Assembly: GCF_016026235.1 (NCBI RefSeq)
Contig: NZ_CP065613.1
DNA: 64,000 nt
Reading direction: 5' to 3' (one strand)
Source: Escherichia coli
GTDB lineage: Bacteria > Pseudomonadota > Gammaproteobacteria > Enterobacterales > Enterobacteriaceae
Each line of letters begins with the position of its first letter. The stretch's first letter is position 1. Under the pieces are notes generated by a model. It was not told the origin of the DNA. It did not search any database and worked only from the letters and a program-made list of their open reading frames with translations. Below are positions 4,313-48,928 of this stretch, one piece after another. The position numbers and the translations under genes are program-made.

Positions 4313-5439
<1,127 letters not shown>

Positions 5440-9120: not shown

Positions 9121-10349
9121 CGAAAGATCTTTCGATTACTTTTTGCGGCGTGAAGTTTCCCAACCCATTCTGCCTCTCTTCTTCGCCGGTAGGCAACTGC
9201 TATGAGATGTGTGCCAAAGCCTACGACACAGGTTGGGGCGGTGTGGTGTTTAAAACGATCGGCTTTTTTATCGCCAACGAAGTCTCGCCGCGTTTTGATC
9301 ATCTGGTGAAAGAAGATACCGGTTTTATCGGCTTCAAAAATATGGAGCAGATTGCTGAACATCCGTTGGAAGAGAATCTGGCCGCCCTGCGTCGGCTGAA
9401 GGAAGATTACCCGGACAAAGTATTGATCGCTTCGATCATGGGGGAAAATGAGCAGCAATGGGAGGAGCTGGCGCGCCTGGTGCAAGAAGCTGGCGCGGAT
9501 ATGATCGAGTGTAACTTCTCCTGTCCGCAAATGACTTCTCATGCGATGGGTAGCGATGTCGGGCAAAGCCCGGAGCTGGTAGAAAAATATTGTCGGGCAG
9601 TGAAACGGGGTTCCACGCTGCCAATGCTGGCGAAGATGACGCCGAATATCGGTGATATGTGCGAAGTGGCGCTGGCGGCGAAGCGCGGCGGCGCAGATGG
9701 CATTGCGGCGATTAACACCGTTAAATCCATCACCAATATCGATCTTAATCAGAAAATCGGTATGCCGATCGTTAACGGAAAATCGAGTATTTCCGGATAT
9801 TCCGGTAAAGCGGTAAAACCGATCGCCCTGCGCTTCATTCAGCAAATGCGCACCCATCCAGAACTGCGCGATTTCCCAATCAGCGGTATCGGCGGCATTG
9901 AAACCTGGGAGGATGCGGCGGAGTTTTTATTGCTCGGCGCAGCAACGTTACAGGTCACCACCGGCATTATGCAGTACGGCTATCGCATCGTAGAAGATAT
10001 GGCGAGCGGGTTATCGCATTATCTCGCCGATCAGGGATTTGATTCGTTGCAGGAGATGGTAGGTCTGGCGAATAACAATATTGTCCCGGCGGAAGATTTA
10101 GACCGCAGTTATATTGTCTATCCCCGTATCAATCTTGATAAATGTGTTGGCTGTGGACGCTGTTATATTTCCTGTTACGACGGCGGTCACCAGGCGATGG
10201 AATGGAGCGAGAAAACCCGGACACCGCATTGTAATACCGAGAAATGTGTGGGTTGCCTGCTTTGTGGTCACGTCTGCCCGGTGGGTTGTATTGATCTCGG
10301 AGAAGTGAAGTTTAAGAAGGGAGAGAAAGAACACCCGGTAACGTTGTAA
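9114..10349 (+). CDS. preA: NAD-dependent dihydropyrimidine dehydrogenase subunit PreA
   Basis: ORF 9108..10349 (TTG); likely ATG 9114 ([15 protein letters not shown]) with AGGGAG upstream; overlaps the preT stop; C-terminal ferredoxin-like CxxCxxC motifs. Confidence 0.9.
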
Positions 10350-25408: not shown

Positions 25409-26497
25409 ATGAATAACCGGGAAAAGGAGATCCTTGCAATTTTACGGCGTAACCCGCTGATTCAGCAGAACGAAATTGCGGACATGCTGCAAATCAGTCG
25501 TTCGCGCGTTGCGGCGCATATTATGGATTTAATGCGCAAAGGCCGGATTAAAGGCAAAGGTTACATTCTCACCGAGCAGGAATACTGCGTAGTGGTGGGG
25601 ACAATCAATATGGATATTCGCGGGATGGCGGATATCCATTACCCACAAGCGGCTTCTCATCCCGGTACAATTCATTGCTCGGCGGGCGGCGTGGGTCGCA
25701 ACATCGCCCACAATCTGGCGCTGTTAGGCCGTGACGTCCATTTGCTTTCAGTGATTGGCGATGACTTTTATGGCGAAATGCTCCTGGAAGAAACGCGCCG
25801 TGCCGGCGTGAATGTCTCCGGCTGCGTTCGTTTGCATGGTCAAAGCACATCGACGTATCTGGCAATTGCCAATCGAGACGATCAAACCGTGCTGGCGATT
25901 AACGATACCCATCTGCTGGAACAGTTGACACCGCAACTACTGAACGGGTCGCGCGATTTACTTCGTCATGCGGGCGTGGTACTGGCTGATTGCAACCTGA
26001 CAGCCGAGGCGCTGGAATGGGTCTTTACCCTCGCTGATGAAATCCCGGTGTTTGTCGATACCGTTTCAGAATTCAAAGCGGGCAAAATCAAACACTGGCT
26101 GGCGCATATTCACACCCTGAAACCCACTTTACCGGAGCTGGAAATTTTATGGGGACAGGCGATCACCAGCGATGCTGACCGTAATGCCGCAGTGAATGCA
26201 TTGCATCAGCAAGGTGTTCAGCAACTGTTTGTTTATTTGCCCGATGAGTCAGTTTATTGCAGCGAAAAGGATGGAGAACAATTTTTGCTGACCGCGCCAG
26301 CGCATACGACAGTAGACAGTTTTGGTGCTGACGATGGTTTTATGGCGGGCCTGGTATATAGCTTTCTTGAAGGATACAGTTTCCGCGACAGCGCCCGTTT
26401 TGCGGTAGCCTGCGCGGCAATTTCGCGCGCCAGCGGCAGCTTAAACAACCCTACCCTGTCTGCCGATAACGCGCTTTCATTAGTGCCAATGGTGTAA
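25409..26497 (+). CDS. yeiI: Uncharacterised HTH-fused PfkB-family carbohydrate/nucleoside kinase YeiI
   Basis: 362-aa ORF with N-terminal winged-HTH-like segment (EILAILRRNPLIQQNEIADMLQISRSRVAAHI) followed by a PfkB ribokinase-like domain (GGVGRNIA); ATG is 2 nt after the nfo stop. Confidence 0.85.
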   Translation: MNNREKEILAILRRNPLIQQNEIADMLQISRSRVAAHIMDLMRKGRIKGKGYILTEQEYCVVVGTINMDIRGMADIHYPQAASHPGTIHCSAGGVGRNIAHNLALLGRDVHLLSVIGDDFYGEMLLEETRRAGVNVSGCVRLHGQSTSTYLAIANRDDQTVLAINDTHLLEQLTPQLLNGSRDLLRHAGVVLADCNLTAEALEWVFTLADEIPVFVDTVSEFKAGKIKHWLAHIHTLKPTLPELEILWGQAITSDADRNAAVNALHQQGVQQLFVYLPDESVYCSEKDGEQFLLTAPAHTTVDSFGADDGFMAGLVYSFLEGYSFRDSARFAVACAAISRASGSLNNPTLSADNALSLVPMV

Positions 26498-27902: not shown

Positions 27903-28844
27903 TTAATGGGTTTTGATGTAGCCGCGCACGCACTCTTCGACTAAGCCCCAGAACCAGTCGGTATCAATAGTGATGCCGACTTTGGTATTAGCGGGCTTGC
28001 CAAGAACGCCCAGCTCGTCGCAGACGGTACGCCCATAGCAAGGGCCACTGTTGACGTCCACTTCGACGTACATCTCCTGGGTTTTAATGCCATCAGGGTT
28101 AATCAGATAACCGATGCAGGTGGCGTCGTGCACCGGGCCGCCAGCCAGGCCGTAGTTTTCGAACTGGGTTTTGAGAGTGAAGTTCATGATGTCGCTGAAC
28201 AGCTCTCCGGCAGGGCCGCCTGCCCTTTCCATTCGTGCAATCACGTCCGGGGTGCAAACGGTCTGGTTGGTAAGATCGAGGCCCATCATCACTAATGGAA
28301 CGCCAGAAGTGAACACCACGCGTGCGGCTTCCGGGTCAGCAAAGATGTTGAACTCGGCAGATGGCGTGAAGTTGCCTGTACCGTAAGCGCCGCCCATTAG
28401 CACAATTTCACGAATTTTAGGCAGGATCGCGGGTTGCATACGCATTGCCACCGCGATATTTGAAAGCGGACCAACCGGCACCAGAGTGATATCGCCATCG
28501 CTTGCCATCAGGGTATCAATGATGTATTTCACCGCGTGGGTACTTTCTGCCTGGCGGGTCAGCGGCTCGAATACCGGGCCATCCAGTCCGGTTTCACCGT
28601 GAATATTATCGGCAACGATTTGTTGACGCATAATGGGTTGCGGCATCCCCGCATAAACCGGAACATTAATCTCCAGTTTCTGGCAAACATTCAGGCCATT
28701 AATTAATGTTTTATCAAGCGTCTGATTACCCGCTACAATAGTGATGCCTAATAAATCTATTGCCGGATGTTTCGCTGCCATCATCATTGCAATAGCATCA
28801 TCATGACCCGGATCACAATCCAGAATAATTTTTCTCTTTTCCAT
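27903..28844 (-). CDS. rihB: Pyrimidine-specific ribonucleoside hydrolase
   Basis: 313-aa ORF with the nucleoside hydrolase N-terminal aspartate motif DCDPGHDDA. Confidence 0.9.
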
Positions 28845-29012
28845 TGTTTATTTCCTCTGTTTCCAGTTGCGTTATTTTTTCTACAGCAAAGAAAATTCGA
28901 CCGGGCCGATGATTGAATCTTAACAACAGCGTACGTATGCTAAATATGAGAAATCTCACAGCGGATAAACATCGTGAAAGAAATCCACAATAATGATCTT
29001 AAGCTGCAATTG

Positions 29013-29672
29013 ATGAGTGAATCCGCGTTTAAGGATTGCTTTTTAACGGATGTTTCAGCCGATACGCGGCTGTTTCATTTTTTAGCGCGTGACTACATTG
29101 TGCAGGAAGGGCAACAGCCGTCCTGGCTGTTTTACCTGACGCGAGGCCGCGCCAGGCTTTACGCCACGCTAGCTAATGGTCGCGTGTCGCTGATCGATTT
29201 CTTTGCCGCCCCCTGTTTTATTGGTGAGATTGAGTTAATCGATAAAGACCATGAACCGCGTGCGGTACAGGCTATTGAAGAGTGTTGGTGCCTTGCGCTC
29301 CCTATGAAACATTACCGTCCGCTGTTATTAAACGACACCCTATTTTTACGAAAACTTTGCGTCACCTTAAGTCATAAAAATTATCGTAATATTGTTTCTT
29401 TAACTCAGAATCAATCATTTCCGTTAGTGAATCGCCTGGCAGCATTTATATTACTCTCACAAGAAGGTGATCTTTATCACGAAAAGCATACGCAAGCGGC
29501 AGAGTATTTAGGCGTTTCTTATCGACATCTTTTATATGTTCTCGCGCAATTCATTCACGACGGTTTATTAATTAAAAGCAAGAAAGGATATCTAATTAAA
29601 AACAGAAAGCAGTTGTCAGGGCTGGCGCTGGAGATGGACCCGGAGAATAAATTCTCCGGGATGATGCAGTAA
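29013..29672 (+). CDS. yeiL: CRP/FNR-family transcriptional regulator YeiL
   Basis: ORF 28974..29672 (GTG); conserved start [11 protein letters not shown] at ATG 29013; cNMP-binding-like domain plus C-terminal HTH. Confidence 0.85.
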
Positions 29673-29742: not shown

Positions 29743-30993
29743 TTACGCCAGACCAATAAAGAACCCGGCAATGGTCGCGCTCATCAGGTTGGAAAGCGTT
29801 GCTGCTGCCAGCGCCCGTAAACCAAGCTGAGCGATTTCCGGTGCACGTTTTGGCGAAATAGCCGAAAATGCGCCAACGACAACACCGATAGAACCAAAGT
29901 TAGCAAAACCACAAAGCGCAAAGGAGATAATCGCAATGGTTTTCACTTCCAGCGTGCCGCCCGTTTGCAGGTATGGGGAGAAACTCAGGTAAGCGACGAA
30001 TTCGTTAATCGCCAGTTTCTGCCCAATCAGGCTACCCGCAAGGTTGGCATCACTCCAGTCCACACCCATGATCCACGCCAGCGGTGCCAGCACATAGCCA
30101 AAAATACTTTCCAGAGAAGCATTGGTAAAACCAAACCAACCGCCAATTCCGCCGATAATGCCATTAATCAGCGCAATAATTGCGACAAACGCCATTACCA
30201 CCGTCGCCACACCGGCGGCGATTTTCAACCCGGTCATCGCACCGCTCGCCGCCGCTTCGATAAAGCTTTTTGGCGGCGTTTCACTGAACGACAGATTTTC
30301 AAATGTGACCTGCGAAGGCTCGGTTGCCGGACTAAGAATACGTGCAAACAAAATACCGCCGGGGATCGCCATCAGCGATGCCGCCAACAGGTAGTCAATT
30401 GGTACGCCCATTCCGGCATAACCAATCATCATCGAACCCGCAATGGACGCCATCCCGCTACAAATTGCGGTAAACAACTCGTTGCGATTCATGCGATCGA
30501 TAAACGGTTTAACGATCGCCGGGATCTCATTTTGCCCGAGGAAAATAGTAGTAACCGCAACAAAAGATTCGATTTTGCTGATGTTGAGGGCTTTCTGGAA
30601 AATGCTGCCAAGGATGCGAATCAGCAGCCCCATCACGCCAATGTAGTACAGCAGACTGATGAGCGCAGTGACGAAGATAATCGCCGGGAGTACGCGAAAG
30701 GCGAAGATAAAGCCTGCGCCATCAAACAGGACATCCATTTTCGGCCCAACCAGCGAACCAAAAATGAAGGCGCTACCGGCATCACTGTAAGACATCACTT
30801 TATGAACACCTAATGCCGCCTGTTCTACTGCCCATTTTCCCGGCGGAAAATAGAGCATGATGCCACCAATAGCGATTTGCAGCAGCAGTGCGGCTCCAAC
30901 CGTGCGCAAACTGATGCTCTTTTTATTTACCGACAACAGAAATGCTATTGCCAGTAACACCACCATCCCCACAACACTTCTCATTATATCCAT
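29743..30993 (-). CDS. psuT: Putative pseudouridine transporter (CNT family)
   Basis: 416-aa ORF; paralog of nupX. Confidence 0.9.
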   Translation of the reverse strand: MDIMRSVVGMVVLLAIAFLLSVNKKSISLRTVGAALLLQIAIGGIMLYFPPGKWAVEQAALGVHKVMSYSDAGSAFIFGSLVGPKMDVLFDGAGFIFAFRVLPAIIFVTALISLLYYIGVMGLLIRILGSIFQKALNISKIESFVAVTTIFLGQNEIPAIVKPFIDRMNRNELFTAICSGMASIAGSMMIGYAGMGVPIDYLLAASLMAIPGGILFARILSPATEPSQVTFENLSFSETPPKSFIEAAASGAMTGLKIAAGVATVVMAFVAIIALINGIIGGIGGWFGFTNASLESIFGYVLAPLAWIMGVDWSDANLAGSLIGQKLAINEFVAYLSFSPYLQTGGTLEVKTIAIISFALCGFANFGSIGVVVGAFSAISPKRAPEIAQLGLRALAAATLSNLMSATIAGFFIGLA

Positions 30994-31086: not shown

Positions 31087-32021
31087 TTAACCCGCGAGAC
31101 GCTGATATTCTTTGGCAATTTCGCTCGCCAGAATGGCGTTGTTGAACACCAGCTGGATGTTGGATTTCAGGCTGTCACCGCCGGTCAGCTCAGCAACGCG
31201 CGCCAGCAGGAATGGCGTACTTTCTTTACCAATAACACCCTGCGCTTCAGCTTCAGCTACCGCCTGATCGCCGCATTGATAGTGTGTTCCGGCATAGCAA
31301 ACTGTTCCGGGATCGGGTTCGCTACCACGAGGCCACCGTTCAGCCCGCTTTGCCATTTCACCGCCATTGCACGGGCAATTTCGCTGGCGCTGTCGAGACG
31401 AATGCTGACGTCAAACGGGCTGGTACGGCAGAAAAACGCAGGCAGCGCTTTAGTCTGATAGCCAATTAACGGCACACCGAAGGTTTCTAAATACTCAGTG
31501 GTTAATCCTAAATCGAGAATAGATTTCGCCCCGGCACAAACAACGGTGACATTAGTATTTGCCAGTTCTTGCAAATCGGCAGAAATATCGAAGGTATGTT
31601 CCGCCCCGCGATGAACACCACCAATTCCCCCGGTGGCAAATACTTTAATTCCGGCAAGCGCCGCAATAATCATCGTTGAAGCCACAGTGGTTGCGCCATT
31701 TTTTCCGGCGGCAACAACAAAAGGTAAATCGCGACGACTAACTTTGGTCACGTTATGCCCTTCACGACCCAGTAATTCAATTTCTTCTTTGCTTAAACCC
31801 ACTTTCATCACGCCACCAATAATGGCGATAGTGGCAGGTACTGCGCCCTGTTTACGAATAGTTTCTTCAACTTCAATTGCGGTCTGGGCATTTTGTGGGA
31901 ACGGCATCCCGTGAGAAATAATGGTCGATTCCAGCGCCACAACCGGTTTTTTGTTTTTTAAAGCGTCCTGCACTTCCGGGGAAATTTGTAATAATTCAGG
32001 GGAAATTTTTAATTCAGACAT
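31087..32021 (-). pseudogene. psuG: Pseudouridine-5'-phosphate glycosidase with a disrupted reading frame
   Basis: N-terminal 252 residues in ORF 31257..32021 (ends ...PEHTINAAIRR*); conserved C-terminal 60 residues DQAVAEAEAQG...EYQRLAG are in another frame (ORF 31087..31356). Frames meet at plus 31261-31274 cgcctgatcgccgc. Confidence 0.75.
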
Positions 32022-32950
32022 TCTGCGTTCTCCACTAACGATATAACGTTGGCAATCGATAAATCGGGGTTATTGGTGTATTCACAGGAGAGCGCCATTG
32101 ACGAACATCCCTGTGCGAAACGAACAGATTCGGCAAACGGCATTCCGTCTACCCAACACGAAGCAAGTCCCGCCATCATGGCATCGCCCGCTCCGGTAAC
32201 ATTAATAACATTGGTTTTGATCGAGGCAGACCAGCCACTTTCACCGCTGATTTCACTGTAATAAACGCCATCGCCGCCCATGCTCAATACCAATCGGTTC
32301 AGGCCATGTTGATGGAACCAGGCAGCAACTTTTGCCACATCTTCACGCCCTGACAGCGCAATCCCACTCAGTGTTTCCGCTTCAAGGCGGTTTGGCTTGA
32401 GAGTATGGATTTGACTTAATCGCTCGCGTACTTTGACGCATTTCCACGCGGAAACCGGATCGACAAATACGGGTACGTTGGCAGCATTATCCAGAATCCA
32501 TGCCAGTGCCTCTTCACTGATATTACAGTCCGCGACAATGACCTTTGCCCTCTGAATAAATTCACGGTGCTGTGCGAGATATTCAGCTGTAATAGCGTTG
32601 CTAATATTCATGTCATTTATAGCAACCAGCATTTCACCAGTATTATCGAGTAATGATAAATAGCTCGACGTATTTTCTCCCGGCACAATCAGGCATTTAT
32701 CGACATAAACGCCAGATTGATTGGTTTGCGTTAGCAGCGATTGGCCATAAAAATCACTGCCTACGGCGCTCAGTAGCCAGGCTTTATTACCCAGCAACGC
32801 CAGGTTTTGTGCAATATTGCGCCCTACCCCACCAGGCGTAAATTTTATTTTACCTGGATTTGAATCCGCATAATTTAATGATTCATGTGAATATCCGGCG
32901 ACATCAATATTCGCCGAGCCTATAATTACGACATAATCCTTTTCGCGCAT
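32009..32950 (-). CDS. psuK: Pseudouridine kinase (PfkB family)
   Basis: 313-aa ORF MREKDYVVIIGSANIDVAGY... with GGVGRNIA motif; overlaps the psuG start by 13 nt. Confidence 0.9.
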   Translation of the reverse strand: MREKDYVVIIGSANIDVAGYSHESLNYADSNPGKIKFTPGGVGRNIAQNLALLGNKAWLLSAVGSDFYGQSLLTQTNQSGVYVDKCLIVPGENTSSYLSLLDNTGEMLVAINDMNISNAITAEYLAQHREFIQRAKVIVADCNISEEALAWILDNAANVPVFVDPVSAWKCVKVRERLSQIHTLKPNRLEAETLSGIALSGREDVAKVAAWFHQHGLNRLVLSMGGDGVYYSEISGESGWSASIKTNVINVTGAGDAMMAGLASCWVDGMPFAESVRFAQGCSSMALSCEYTNNPDLSIANVISLVENAECLN

Positions 32951-33017
32951 AGCACGTCCTCTGGTAAAAAATTACCAACCCTGTCAATCCACAAGAATAT
33001 AGATACTGCAAAGACGG

Positions 33018-33053
33018 TTTAAACATGTGTTCATATTTAAACATGTGCTCATA
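33018..33053. repeat. Tandem 18-bp direct repeat upstream of psuK
   Basis: tttaaacatgtgttcata (33018-33035) immediately repeated as tttaaacatgtgctcata (33036-33053), 17/18 identical; a third gcatgt follows at 33058-33063. Confidence 0.6.
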
Positions 33054-33190
33054 GTATGCATGTTTTACGTAAAGTAAATTGCCGCCAGAGAGGCAAAGCG
33101 GGCAGATTTGAGCAGGCTCACAAAATGCGATTAAATGCCAGAATTACAAAAGCGAGGAATTTGTGACGGGATGCACAGAACATGAACACT

Positions 33191-33216
33191 AAAAAAGGGC
33201 AGAAAAGAATCTGCCC
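33191..33216 (-). terminator. Rho-independent terminator, probably ending the fruBKA transcript
   Basis: Minus strand GGGCAGA-ttcttt-TCTGCCC followed by TTTTTT (plus-strand A tract 33191-33196), about 160 nt past the fruA stop. Confidence 0.55.
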
Positions 33217-33373
33217 TTGAGGAAATAACCTTAGTGTTTGATGAACGTTTCAGGTTTCTACTGAAAGATAAAACCATTTAAATTCATAAAATTACATTCA
33301 CAAACCGGTCATTCTCTTTGCGCTCATCCAATGATACAGGGCAGTAAATTTCTGCCCTGTAACACACCTTTTA

Positions 33374-35065
33374 TTACGCGGCTTTCGCTACTGCGTCCAC
33401 TTCCGGACGTTTCAGGAAGGCATAGGCCAAACCCGCCACCAGCGTACCGGCAATAATTGCTACCAGGTAACCCAGTACCGGCGTAATAGCGCCAGGGATC
33501 AGCAGAACAAACAGACCACCGTGCGGTGCCATCAGTTTCGCACCAATCGCCATTGAGATTGCGCCAGTCAGCGCCCCACCAACGATACAACACGGCAGCA
33601 CACGCATCGGATCACGAGCAGCAAACGGAATTGCACCTTCCGAAATAAAGCACAGACCAAGAACCAGAGCGGCTTTGCCACCTTCCTGCTGCGCTTTGTC
33701 AAATTTGCGACGCGCCACCATTGTTGCCAGACCCATTGCCAGCGGTGGCACCATACCTGCTGCCATAATCGCCGCCATCGGGCCATAGGTTTGAGTACTC
33801 AGCAGACCCACACCGAATGCGTACGCTGCTTTATTTACCGGACCGCCCATGTCAGTACACATCATGCCACCGAGGATCGCCCCCAGCAGAACCGCATTCG
33901 CAGTCCCCATGGTCTGCAGCCAGTGAGTCAACCCTTCGAGAATGCCAGCAACCGGTTTACCGATCAGGTAGATCATCGCCAGACCGACCACCAGACTGGA
34001 AATTAGCGGAATGATCAGGATCGGTTTCAGCGCCTCCATACTCTGTGGCAGTTTCAGTTGCGTACTGATTAACTTCGCAATGTAACCAGCCAGGAAGCCC
34101 GCAATAATACCGCCAATGAAGCCAGAACCGGTGCTGACCGCCAGCATACCGCCAATCAGACCCGGCGTGAGACCCGGACGATCGGCAATGGAGAAGGCAA
34201 TGTAACCTGCCAGTACCGGCACCATCAGCGCAAAGGCTGAACCACCACCAATCTGCATCAGCGCCGCTGCCAACGTACCCGGCTCTTTAAACGCTTCGAT
34301 ACCAAAAGCAAAAGAAAGCGCGATACACAGACCACCTGCAACGACCATCGGCAGCATGTAAGAGACGCCCGTCAGCAAGTGACGGTATGCGCCTGCACTC
34401 TCTTTCTTACCTTCAGAGGTCGCCGTTTGAGCTTTGCCCACCGGTTCATACGGCGTTGCTTCAGCAACCGCTTTATCCAGTTCCTGCGCGGTTTTCTTCA
34501 GCGCCAGACCGGTAGAGGTACGATACATCGGTTTACCAGCAAATTTTGCCAGATCCACTTCGATATCTGCCGCCACAATCACCAGATCCGCTGCGACTAC
34601 TTCTTCGGGAGTGATTGCATTACCCGCGCCAACAGAACCACGGGTTTCAACTTTCACCCACCAGCCACGTTTTTTCGCTTCGGTTTCAATGGCTTCAGCC
34701 GCCATAAAGGTGTGTGCTACGCCAGTCGGGCAAGCAGTCACCGCAACTACGCGTTTCGGACCGCTGGCGGCAACCGGTGCTGTCGCAGCGACCGGCGCAG
34801 TGTAAGGTTTCGCATGGCCTTTGGCTTCACTCAGGAACAGCTCAGGGTGCGCAACTGCCCGGGAAATATCGCCCAGCCAGACATTTTTACCGTTCAGCGC
34901 GCTGTCATTCGGGATGGAATCACCGAGAACAATCGCCATTTCTGCGTCGTTCGGATTGTCGATGATTTCCAGTTTTGCTTTTCGCGCCGCCGCGCCCAGC
35001 AGGGTCTTCGCCATATAGGCGCGTGCCTGACCGAGATTAGCGTCAATAATCAGCAGCGTTTTCAT
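33374..35065 (-). CDS. fruA: PTS fructose-specific EIIB'BC component
   Basis: 563-aa ORF MKTLLIIDANLGQARAYMAKTLL... with EIIB cysteine (VTACPTGVAHT) and a polytopic EIIC domain. Confidence 0.95.
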   Translation of the reverse strand: MKTLLIIDANLGQARAYMAKTLLGAAARKAKLEIIDNPNDAEMAIVLGDSIPNDSALNGKNVWLGDISRAVAHPELFLSEAKGHAKPYTAPVAATAPVAASGPKRVVAVTACPTGVAHTFMAAEAIETEAKKRGWWVKVETRGSVGAGNAITPEEVVAADLVIVAADIEVDLAKFAGKPMYRTSTGLALKKTAQELDKAVAEATPYEPVGKAQTATSEGKKESAGAYRHLLTGVSYMLPMVVAGGLCIALSFAFGIEAFKEPGTLAAALMQIGGGSAFALMVPVLAGYIAFSIADRPGLTPGLIGGMLAVSTGSGFIGGIIAGFLAGYIAKLISTQLKLPQSMEALKPILIIPLISSLVVGLAMIYLIGKPVAGILEGLTHWLQTMGTANAVLLGAILGGMMCTDMGGPVNKAAYAFGVGLLSTQTYGPMAAIMAAGMVPPLAMGLATMVARRKFDKAQQEGGKAALVLGLCFISEGAIPFAARDPMRVLPCCIVGGALTGAISMAIGAKLMAPHGGLFVLLIPGAITPVLGYLVAIIAGTLVAGLAYAFLKRPEVDAVAKAA

Positions 35066-47833: not shown

Positions 47834-48928
47834 ATGGGCGCTTATCTGATTCGCCGTCTGTTGCTGGTGATCCCAACGTTATGGGCGATTATCACTATCA
47901 ACTTTTTCATCGTGCAAATTGCGCCTGGCGGTCCGGTCGACCAGGCCATCGCCGCCATTGAGTTTGGTAATGCCGGAGTATTACCCGGCGCAGGCGGTGA
48001 AGGCGTTCGCGCCAGCCATGCGCAAACGGGCGTCGGTAATATCAGCGACAGTAATTACCGTGGCGGACGCGGATTAGATCCAGAAGTGATCGCCGAGATC
48101 ACTCATCGCTACGGTTTCGATAAGCCGATCCACGAACGTTACTTCAAAATGCTCTGGGACTACATCCGCTTTGATTTTGGCGATAGCCTGTTTCGCAGCG
48201 CCTCGGTGCTGACGCTGATTAAAGACAGTCTGCCGGTTTCCATCACCCTCGGATTGTGGAGCACGCTGATTATCTATCTGGTGTCGATTCCGTTAGGCAT
48301 TCGCAAAGCTGTTTATAATGGGAGCCGCTTTGACGTCTGGAGTAGCGCATTTATCATCATCGGCTACGCCATTCCGGCCTTTTTGTTTGCCATCCTGCTG
48401 ATTGTCTTCTTCGCAGGCGGCAGCTATTTCGACCTGTTCCCTCTACGCGGCCTGGTTTCCGCTAACTTTGATTCGCTGCCGTGGTATCAGAAAATCACCG
48501 ATTATCTGTGGCATATCACGCTGCCGGTGCTGGCGACGGTGATTGGTGGCTTTGCGGCGCTGACTATGCTGACAAAAAACTCATTCCTTGATGAAGTGCG
48601 CAAGCAATACGTGGTGACCGCGCGTGCGAAAGGGGTAAGTGAAAAAAATATTCTCTGGAAACATGTGTTCCGCAACGCCATGCTGCTGGTGATTGCCGGT
48701 TTTCCGGCGACGTTTATCAGCATGTTTTTTACCGGCTCGCTGCTGATTGAGGTGATGTTTTCACTCAATGGTCTTGGCTTACTGGGCTACGAAGCGACCG
48801 TCTCGCGCGATTATCCTGTAATGTTTGGTACCTTGTATATTTTCACCCTGATTGGCCTGCTGCTGAATATTGTCAGTGATATCAGCTATACGCTGGTCGA
48901 TCCGCGTATAGATTTTGAGGGACGTTAA
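47834..48928 (+). CDS. yejB: Peptide ABC transporter permease
   Basis: 364-aa polytopic ORF immediately after yejA. Confidence 0.9.

Follow-up and report, generated by a model that had tools for sequence, protein, structure and literature searches.

A conserved pair of palindromes at the predicted psuK promoter of Escherichia coli, a candidate operator for the kinase-like protein YeiI

We analysed a 64,000-nucleotide stretch of an Escherichia coli genome (contig NZ_CP065613.1), hereafter called the window, with a focus on an 18-bp tandem repeat located between psuK, which encodes pseudouridine kinase, and fruA. The two units of this repeat probably represent a dual operator, O1 and O2, placed on the start of the psuK-psuG-psuT promoter. 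Sequence comparisons point to YeiI, a protein with an N-terminal winged helix-turn-helix (wHTH) domain and a PfkB kinase fold, as the repressor most likely to bind these sites. An initial annotation of the window had read the repeat as an iterated operator for a dimeric regulator, an interpretation supported by the presence of one palindrome in each unit, by the conservation of the pair and by the occurrence of the same architecture in distant gamma-proteobacteria.

The repeat, which comprises the two operator palindromes and their flanks, occupies positions 33018-33053 on the minus strand. Its units, TTTAAACATGTGTTCATA (33018-33035) and TTTAAACATGTGCTCATA (33036-33053), follow each other head to tail and are identical at 17 of 18 positions, as first described. 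Tandem Repeats Finder (TRF) assigns the repeat a period of 18, 2.0 copies, 94% matches and a score of 65, and a separate repeat-family search recovers the identical pair (family D1). It lies 68-103 nt upstream of psuK, on the psuK side, in agreement with the distance of 70-110 bp from the psuK start given initially. No other head-to-tail pair with at most one mismatch at periods of 12-30 was found in the 64-kb window. In first-order Markov simulations, a comparable pair arose in 46 of 20,000 spacer-sized (423-nt) sequences (0.23%) and, when all 64 kb were simulated, in 48 of 300 runs (16%). By itself, the repeat is unusual for the spacer, and it is suggestive but not decisive window-wide. The case for an operator rests mainly on cross-species conservation. 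A partial third unit containing GCATGT had also been proposed (33054-33063), but this stretch is out of register and TRF ends at 2.0 copies. We rejected it as a repeat unit, as it consists of a -10 hexamer (33056-33051) and promoter spacer.

Each unit harbours a 12-bp palindrome of the form RAACA-NN-TGTTY, and the centres of the two palindromes are 18 bp apart. The promoter-proximal operator O1 (33039-33050, minus strand; GAGCACATGTTT in the psuK sense) coincides with conserved alignment columns and scores 14.4 bits with an all-species matrix. O2 (33021-33032, minus strand; GAACACATGTTT in the psuK sense), whose GAACA is invariant in the alignment, scores 17.6 bits as a single site. At 32.0 bits, the O1+O2 pair has the highest dual score of the window with the all-species matrix. 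A second exact AAACATGTGTTC is found at 48659-48670, with a weak partner 17 bp upstream and a pair score of 21.1 bits. It is located inside a 364-residue open reading frame (ORF; 47834-48928), and we set it aside as an operator, since it is probably due to chance or coding constraint.

To document conservation, 13 psuK upstream regions were aligned (alignment A2), from two haplotypes of E. coli, three further species or lineages of Escherichia, five Citrobacter, two Buttiauxella and a metagenome-assembled genome (MAG) labelled Raoultella, and the Enterobacter region was read separately. The spacer upstream of psuK is otherwise weakly conserved, with a mean column identity of 70% in this alignment. 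The invariant or near-invariant blocks are TTGTGA-N6-TCA.ATCT, TTTAC, TA..AT and the half-sites of both units, and the same blocks are present in Enterobacter. Escherichia, Citrobacter, Buttiauxella, Enterobacter and Affinibrenneria all keep the operator pair upstream of psuK, so that the comparison of orthologous psuK promoters suggested in the initial annotation reveals its conservation in at least five enterobacterial genera. The hexamer ACATGT, taken at first for the core of the site, did not withstand this comparison: the central dinucleotide is CA, TG, CG, AT, GA, AG, GG, AA or CT across taxa, and only the RAACA/TGTTY arms are retained. We rejected ACATGT as a binding core, as it is a clade-specific by-product of the juxtaposition ACA+TG+T. 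The 17/18 identity between units is likewise limited to the K-12-like allele, with 10-14/18 in other taxa, which indicates that the ancient feature is two neighbouring palindromes and not a fresh duplication. Among the E. coli matches listed, we saw no variation in the copy number of the unit; one short match corresponds to an IS1-associated deletion.

The two palindromes immediately follow a sigma-70-like promoter, P1, predicted from the conserved blocks. It combines a predicted -35 hexamer, TTTACT (33073-33078, minus strand), with a predicted -10 hexamer, TACTAT (33051-33056, minus strand), over a 16-nt spacer, and both TTTAC and TA..AT are invariant in the 13 sequences. TTTACT is also found in Yersinia, Serratia and Affinibrenneria, with TAAAAC (Yersinia and Serratia) or TATATA (Affinibrenneria) at the position directly before O1. 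P1 scores 8/12, under the 9/12 threshold of our scan. Transcription of psuK, the first gene of the psuK-psuG-psuT unit under P1, is predicted to start near 33044. Relative to this predicted start, O1 would extend from about -6 to +6, abutting the -10 hexamer, and O2 from about +13 to +24. Placed directly downstream of the conserved -10 hexamer, the sites would be in a repressor position, and the upstream-activator geometry implied by the initial annotation is not supported. The promoter spacer itself (33057-33072, minus strand) contains AAAACAyGC, which is invariant in Enterobacteriaceae, an unusual property for a spacer, and absent in Yersinia, Serratia and Affinibrenneria. An AAACA half-site within this motif precedes the O1 half-site by 17 nt, and the motif may be an extra regulator contact or something else.

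CRP had been put forward among the proteins that might bind the repeat. The suggestion is reasonable for this promoter, as a CRP-like site, TGTGA-GCCTGC-TCAAA (33107-33122, minus strand), agrees with TGTGA-N6-TCACA at 9 of 10 positions and is conserved in the 13-sequence alignment, but this is a different element from the repeat, located upstream of it by about 55 bp. Counted from the predicted start, on which this figure depends, the site is centred at about -70.5, and the candidate site would thus be placed as in a class-I arrangement. A similarly placed TGTGA-N6-TCATC is present in Affinibrenneria. A paper on CRP and Cra using chromatin immunoprecipitation with exonuclease treatment (ChIP-exo) does not mention psuK, and the supplementary data of Cappable-seq and SMRT-Cappable-seq studies contain nothing for a transcription start at the psuK locus.

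Published evolution experiments bear on P1. The same A>C substitution at 2257444, in the psuK/fruA spacer, repeatedly rises in E. coli K-12 colonising mice (PMC7518454, PMC9509342, PMC10340439), and a single A>C allele has been reported for 'psuKp' in three long-term stationary-phase populations (PMC7858067). We located this adaptive single-nucleotide polymorphism (SNP) by means of a coordinate offset of 1978 to NC_000913.3, calibrated with three srlR coding mutations from the same table; it is the only offset that reproduces all three srlR reference bases and amino acid changes, and the mapping presumes no indel between 2.26 and 2.83 Mb in those authors' reference. The SNP maps to position 33076 of the window, which is the third T when ATTTACT is read on the psuK strand, and changes the -35 hexamer from TTTACT to TTGACT. 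On the basis of this mapping, it would represent independent support for P1 as a promoter.

The operator architecture extends beyond the taxa that have a separate psuK gene. We scored pairs at 18-19 bp spacing over whole loci of 11-17 kb with a weight matrix trained on enterobacterial psuK 12-mers only. In five taxa, the best pair of the entire locus is found 33-58 nt before the start codon of a gene encoding a wHTH-PfkB protein, with psuG next. The top pair and the runner-up score 20.7 and 8.2 bits in Yersinia, 22.3 and 2.5 bits in Serratia, 16.1 and 7.7 bits in Pasteurella, 28.6 and 8.5 bits in Shewanella, and 19.5 and 5.5 bits in Aliivibrio. In Affinibrenneria, where psuK is a separate gene and a yeiI-type gene is also present, the top pair (21.4 vs 9.3 bits, with spacings of 17-19 allowed) is located upstream of psuK, directly after TTTACT-17-TATATA. 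Altogether, the top-scoring pair is located upstream of the regulator's own operon or of the pathway operon in six of the eight test loci, with a positional chance of ~1e-10. In Yersinia, Serratia and Pasteurella, O1 and O2 are separated by 6 bp, and O2 is followed after 3 bp by the ATG that aligns with the N-terminus of YeiI; in the first two genera TTTACT-17-TAAAAC precedes the pair. As O2 ends 3 nt before the ATG in these three taxa, there is no room for a downstream promoter, and the sites there could only act negatively. Yersinia, Serratia and Xenorhabdus also have an extra single palindrome (CAAACAnnnGTTnG) that precedes the gene for the fused kinase by ~240-285 nt (L017 7753-7764, L020 ~4745-4756 and L021 4716-4727) and may be a distal looping operator.

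The gene for the proposed regulator, yeiI (25409-26497, plus strand), was singled out by synteny, Pfam signatures and its co-occurrence with the motif. Wherever psuK stands as a gene of its own, yeiI flanks psuKGT. It adjoins psuT in convergent orientation in Citrobacter, Buttiauxella, Enterobacter and Affinibrenneria, and in E. coli nupX-rihB-yeiL is located between yeiI and psuT. YeiI has been described as uncharacterised (PMC9061257, PMC12506659). Its orthologues convergent with psuT are 360-364 residues long and combine an N-terminal HTH_24 winged helix with a PfkB kinase fold; the corresponding signatures (PF13412 and PF00294) were identified in a relative 99% identical to YeiI, with the same architecture in Buttiauxella and Citrobacter orthologues. 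YeiI is the closest paralogue of PsuK, and the nearest solved relative of its kinase domain is E. coli PsuK (E = 3.8e-67). A PDB search revealed no solved wHTH-PfkB structure, with all matches beginning after the HTH.

Homologues with 43-52% identity to YeiI are present in Yersinia, Serratia, Xenorhabdus, Pasteurella, Shewanella and Aliivibrio. In these six taxa the fused wHTH-PfkB gene leads the operon and is followed by psuG and usually by a gene for a psuT-type transporter. The distant fused kinases share 56-75% identity with E. coli YeiI in the wHTH region and 36-50% in the kinase domain, and the wHTH segment ISRSxVAxHIMxL...KGxIKGKGYIL is nearly invariant. That the wHTH is the best-conserved part of the protein fits a conserved DNA target.

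The catalytic motifs distinguish two types among the 29 proteins compared. The fused Yersinia-type kinases keep the canonical DSNPGK, NxxE and GAGD motifs. The YeiI-type proteins, which come from taxa with a separate PsuK, nearly all have DSN replaced by ASx (ASxPG), NxxE by TxxE and GAGD by GADD. The YeiI-type proteins retain S30, N143 and K170, residues reported to be important for pseudouridine recognition (PMC9061257). PsuK forms a homodimer through an N-terminal beta-thumb that moves on substrate binding (PMC9247573); a wHTH fused ahead of this beta-thumb could be repositioned by ligand binding. With its intact kinase motifs, its leading place in the operon and the operator pair shortly before its own start codon, the fused wHTH-PsuK of Yersinia, Serratia, Pasteurella, Shewanella and Aliivibrio has the appearance of a kinase that is also its own repressor. 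The two roles appear to be split in Enterobacteriaceae and Affinibrenneria between a PsuK without HTH and a YeiI that combines the HTH and the pseudouridine-binding residues with altered catalytic motifs. A broader evolutionary proposal, to which we give slightly less than an even chance, is that YeiI is the founding characterisable member of a group of wHTH-PfkB regulators and that an ancestral bifunctional kinase/autorepressor, persisting in Yersinia, Serratia, Pasteurella, Shewanella and Aliivibrio, was duplicated in Enterobacteriaceae and split into PsuK, which lost the HTH, and a kinase-impaired sensor-repressor, YeiI, which uses the ancestral operator.

The following mechanism may be envisaged. 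CRP-cAMP would aid RNA polymerase at the weak psuK promoter. YeiI would bind O1 and O2 as one dimer per palindrome and thereby occlude the -10/+1 region and the early transcribed DNA, blocking the binding or the escape of RNA polymerase. Repression would hold without pseudouridine or its 5'-phosphate, and a ligand in the kinase-like domain (pseudouridine or its phosphate) would free the operators of YeiI.

Several observations weigh against this model. Our literature search yielded no binding, footprint, transcription-start or expression data for the psuK promoter or YeiI, nor did it yield any description of the operator or of a psuKGT regulator, with most subscription journals and databases such as RegPrecise, RegulonDB and EcoCyc outside its scope. 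The distance of 7 bp between half-site centres within a palindrome is tight for a wHTH dimer. An alternative register, TGTTy-N6-GAACA across the unit junction with half-sites 11 bp apart, is equally conserved, which makes the contacts of one dimer ambiguous as judged from sequence. In the matrix scan, the Xenorhabdus locus has no clear proximal pair, only the distal single site, and a Burkholderiaceae MAG has only one good palindrome, which abuts the ATG. Repressor knock-outs, such as those of frlR, srlR, dgoR, glpR and paaX, are the usual adaptive route in evolution experiments (PMC7518454, PMC9509342, PMC7858067). The adaptive hits at psuK correspond to one promoter SNP, and yeiI loss is never among the tabulated alleles, a pattern that one would not expect of a simple repressor, unless the limiting factor is the promoter itself or inducer is present already. 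Finally, the K-12-like clade has a consensus-scan promoter downstream of the sites, and YeiL homologues exist in Citrobacter and Buttiauxella species, so that absence of the protein is no argument against YeiL there.

YeiL, a CRP/FNR-type protein named as a candidate in the initial annotation, might bind the central TGTTy-N6-GAACA across the unit junction. The layout of TGTTT-AAATAT-GAACA, 5-N6-5, is the one usual for CRP-family sites, its half-sites are the most invariant part of the element, and yeiL (28974-29672, plus strand) adjoins the psu operon in E. coli, with homologues in Citrobacter and Buttiauxella species. The junction bases are equally explained as the arms of two adjacent palindromes, however, and the genomic distribution of yeiL makes its involvement unlikely. 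The Yersinia, Serratia, Pasteurella, Shewanella, Aliivibrio and Affinibrenneria loci have the same architecture but lack yeiL within 5-8 kb, and it is yeiI, not yeiL, that is found beside psuT in Citrobacter, Buttiauxella and Enterobacter. YeiL homologues are widespread in Enterobacteriaceae and also present in Enterococcus (57% identity). The gene is always divergent from one for a rihB-type inosine/uridine hydrolase, followed by a nucleoside transporter gene (Hafnia, L024 5934-7693; Enterococcus, L025 5945-7672; window, 27903-29672). The transporter is of the nupX type or an ABC nucleoside transporter, and no psuG is found nearby in Hafnia and Enterococcus. The comparison with the upstream regions of nupX/rihB and yeiL advised initially revealed no matching repeat site. 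In the window, the best scores in the rihB-yeiL, nupX and yeiL-psuT spacers are at most 3.8 bits, compared with 14-18 bits for the psuK sites; the rihB-yeiL spacer is where autoregulation by YeiL would be expected. The matrix scan also gave no matching site in the nfo-yeiI spacer of the window or in the Hafnia and Enterococcus yeiL loci. Given its constant rihB-type partner, YeiL is more plausibly a regulator of the rihB-nupX module, and the distribution of this module suggests that it moves horizontally.

A second alternative, which we regard as equally improbable, is that the palindromes are activator sites, at about -37 and -55, for a downstream promoter, and that a pseudouridine-bound regulator recruits RNA polymerase there. 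The sequence concerned, TTTAAA-16-TATATT (33023-32996, downstream of the sites), is the sole promoter of the spacer detected by the consensus scan (9/12), and the lack of yeiI loss-of-function alleles in the adaptive-mutation tables is expected for a needed regulator. Nevertheless, TTTAAA/TATATT is not conserved outside the K-12-like E. coli allele, whereas the upstream TTTACT/TACTAT is invariant. Furthermore, the adaptive SNP improves the upstream -35 hexamer and not TTTAAA-16-TATATT, and the layout in Yersinia, Serratia and Pasteurella leaves no space for a promoter between the sites and the ATG.

We accord the same low probability to a third alternative, in which the AT-rich repeat is bound by some other protein or by a global factor (ArcA, Fis or Lrp, for example) and the link with yeiI would be only syntenic. 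In its favour, TGTTTAAAT appears to resemble AT-rich global-regulator boxes. ArcA boxes are 11-bp direct repeats, which the 18-bp spacing does not fit. In addition, the motif tracks wHTH-PfkB genes across five families in varied neighbourhoods, and all those loci share no regulator-like gene other than the fused one.

An RNA element is very unlikely. RNAalifold predicts a 9-pair hairpin across the unit junction, and a start near 33044 would leave most of the element transcribed, such that a UGUUU/GAACA hairpin in the 5' leader might alter stability or translation. However, the core pairs are invariant and covariation is unsupported (term -0.4), and only half of O1 would be transcribed. The corresponding arms of Pasteurella, Shewanella and Aliivibrio (AGUUG/AAACA, AGUUA/GAACA), moreover, would pair poorly, while the DNA palindromes are kept. 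Lastly, a recent, functionless slippage duplication is hardly credible: the 17/18 identity suggests recent homogenisation relative to other taxa, but both units are present in the same register in every orthologous promoter examined, including that of the diverged second E. coli haplotype.

The proposed control of psuK by YeiI belongs to a well-known general kind, that of enzyme-fused, metabolite-sensing repressors with promoter-overlapping palindromic operators, exemplified by BirA, NadR, RbkR and the ROK repressors. BirA, acting at bioO, and NadR have an N-terminal (winged) HTH fused to a pathway enzyme, their palindromic operator overlaps the promoter, and the ligand of the enzyme sets DNA binding. 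YeiI-type proteins similarly combine an HTH with an enzyme domain of the same pathway and, as proposed here, a palindromic operator overlapping the promoter. Unlike in those systems, the fold is that of PfkB ribokinase-like proteins, two short palindromes 18 bp apart take the place of the single long bioO, and the enzyme and regulator roles in E. coli are apparently split between two paralogues. In the ROK repressors NagC and Mlc, a sugar-kinase fold serves as a ligand sensor behind an N-terminal wHTH, and enzymatic paralogues lack the HTH. This repressor/kinase pairing parallels that of YeiI, with its altered NxxE and GAGD motifs, and PsuK, but ROK proteins have an actin-like ATPase fold, and the NagC and Mlc operators are single, ~23 bp long and often looping. 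The psuK promoter also resembles CRP-dependent class-I promoters of catabolic genes that have a specific repressor as well, such as lac and deo: its -35 hexamer is weak, a CRP-like site is present near -70, and a specific operator is predicted at or after +1. Unlike in lac and deo, the operator pair is far more compact (30 bp), and the role of CRP is predicted. RbkR, an archaeal bifunctional riboflavin kinase and regulator, is also a pathway kinase fused to a DNA-binding domain and was discovered through comparative genomics of upstream operators (PMC5397151). RbkR differs from YeiI in being archaeal, in its unrelated kinase fold and in controlling biosynthesis and transport rather than catabolism.

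The psuK-fruA spacer that holds the repeat is 423 nt long (32951-33373). On the minus strand, the gene order is psuT (29743-30993), psuG, psuK (32009-32950, with the ATG at 32950-32948), then fruA, fruK and fruB. Positions 32900-33400 are 100% identical to strain FDAARGOS_943 and 96.8% identical to MG1655. The intrinsic terminator of the fruBKA operon (33195-33218, minus strand), which is kept in both upstream-region alignments, is the upstream boundary of the psuK control region. It consists of GGGCAGA...TCTGCCC followed by T6 and is the sole strong intrinsic terminator after fruA, ~155-180 nt past the fruA stop codon at 33374; it is kept even in the diverged E. coli haplotype. A second conserved hairpin, devoid of a T-run, is located at the fruA stop codon (33332-33364). 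The presence of a hairpin at the stop codon and of a terminator far beyond it indicates a long, partly conserved 3' untranslated region (UTR) of fruA, which could give rise to a 3'-UTR-derived small RNA.

Two deeply diverged haplotypes of the psuK-fruA spacer exist in E. coli (32951-33373 in the window; L002 4052-4505 in strain Z1323CEC0015). The window type was matched by 4232 of 5426 genomes in a megablast search. The second type is E. albertii-like (L009) and carries a repetitive extragenic palindromic (REP)-like insert, with highly similar flanking genes. Both haplotypes share islands corresponding to the operators, the -35 and -10 hexamers, the CRP-like site and the terminator. In strain Z1323CEC0015, psuK is annotated as a frameshifted pseudogene (L002 3109-4051), with intact promoter and operators, and in the E. 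coli isolate L1_E925 IS1 replaces the 5' half of psuK, the operators and the promoter, leaving a truncated psuK (L026 1235-2541). Directly 5' of the psuK Shine-Dalgarno sequence, a hairpin or palindrome, TGGTAA-TTTT-TTACCA (32962-32977, minus strand), is kept across genera; 3 of 11 sequences show one compensatory pair change, from C-G to U-A. Its role could be that of a stabiliser of the mRNA 5' end, of an element acting in translation or of a further site for a protein. TRF also detected two-copy tandem repeats of period 21 at the psuG/psuK overlap (31974-32013) and of period 26 at 9740-9790.

If the dual operator is indeed bound by YeiI, a function and a DNA target would be assigned to one of the remaining uncharacterised proteins of E. 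coli K-12, and the promoter and control logic of the pseudouridine-catabolic operon would be defined. The SNP recurrent in the mouse gut and in stationary phase may be read as an up-mutation that affects the -35 hexamer of a promoter both weak and repressible. A pseudouridine-responsive operator/regulator pair could also find use as a biosensor in the current engineering of strains for pseudouridine production. PsuK and YeiI would represent a clean natural case of a bifunctional enzyme-repressor dividing into an enzyme and a sensor.

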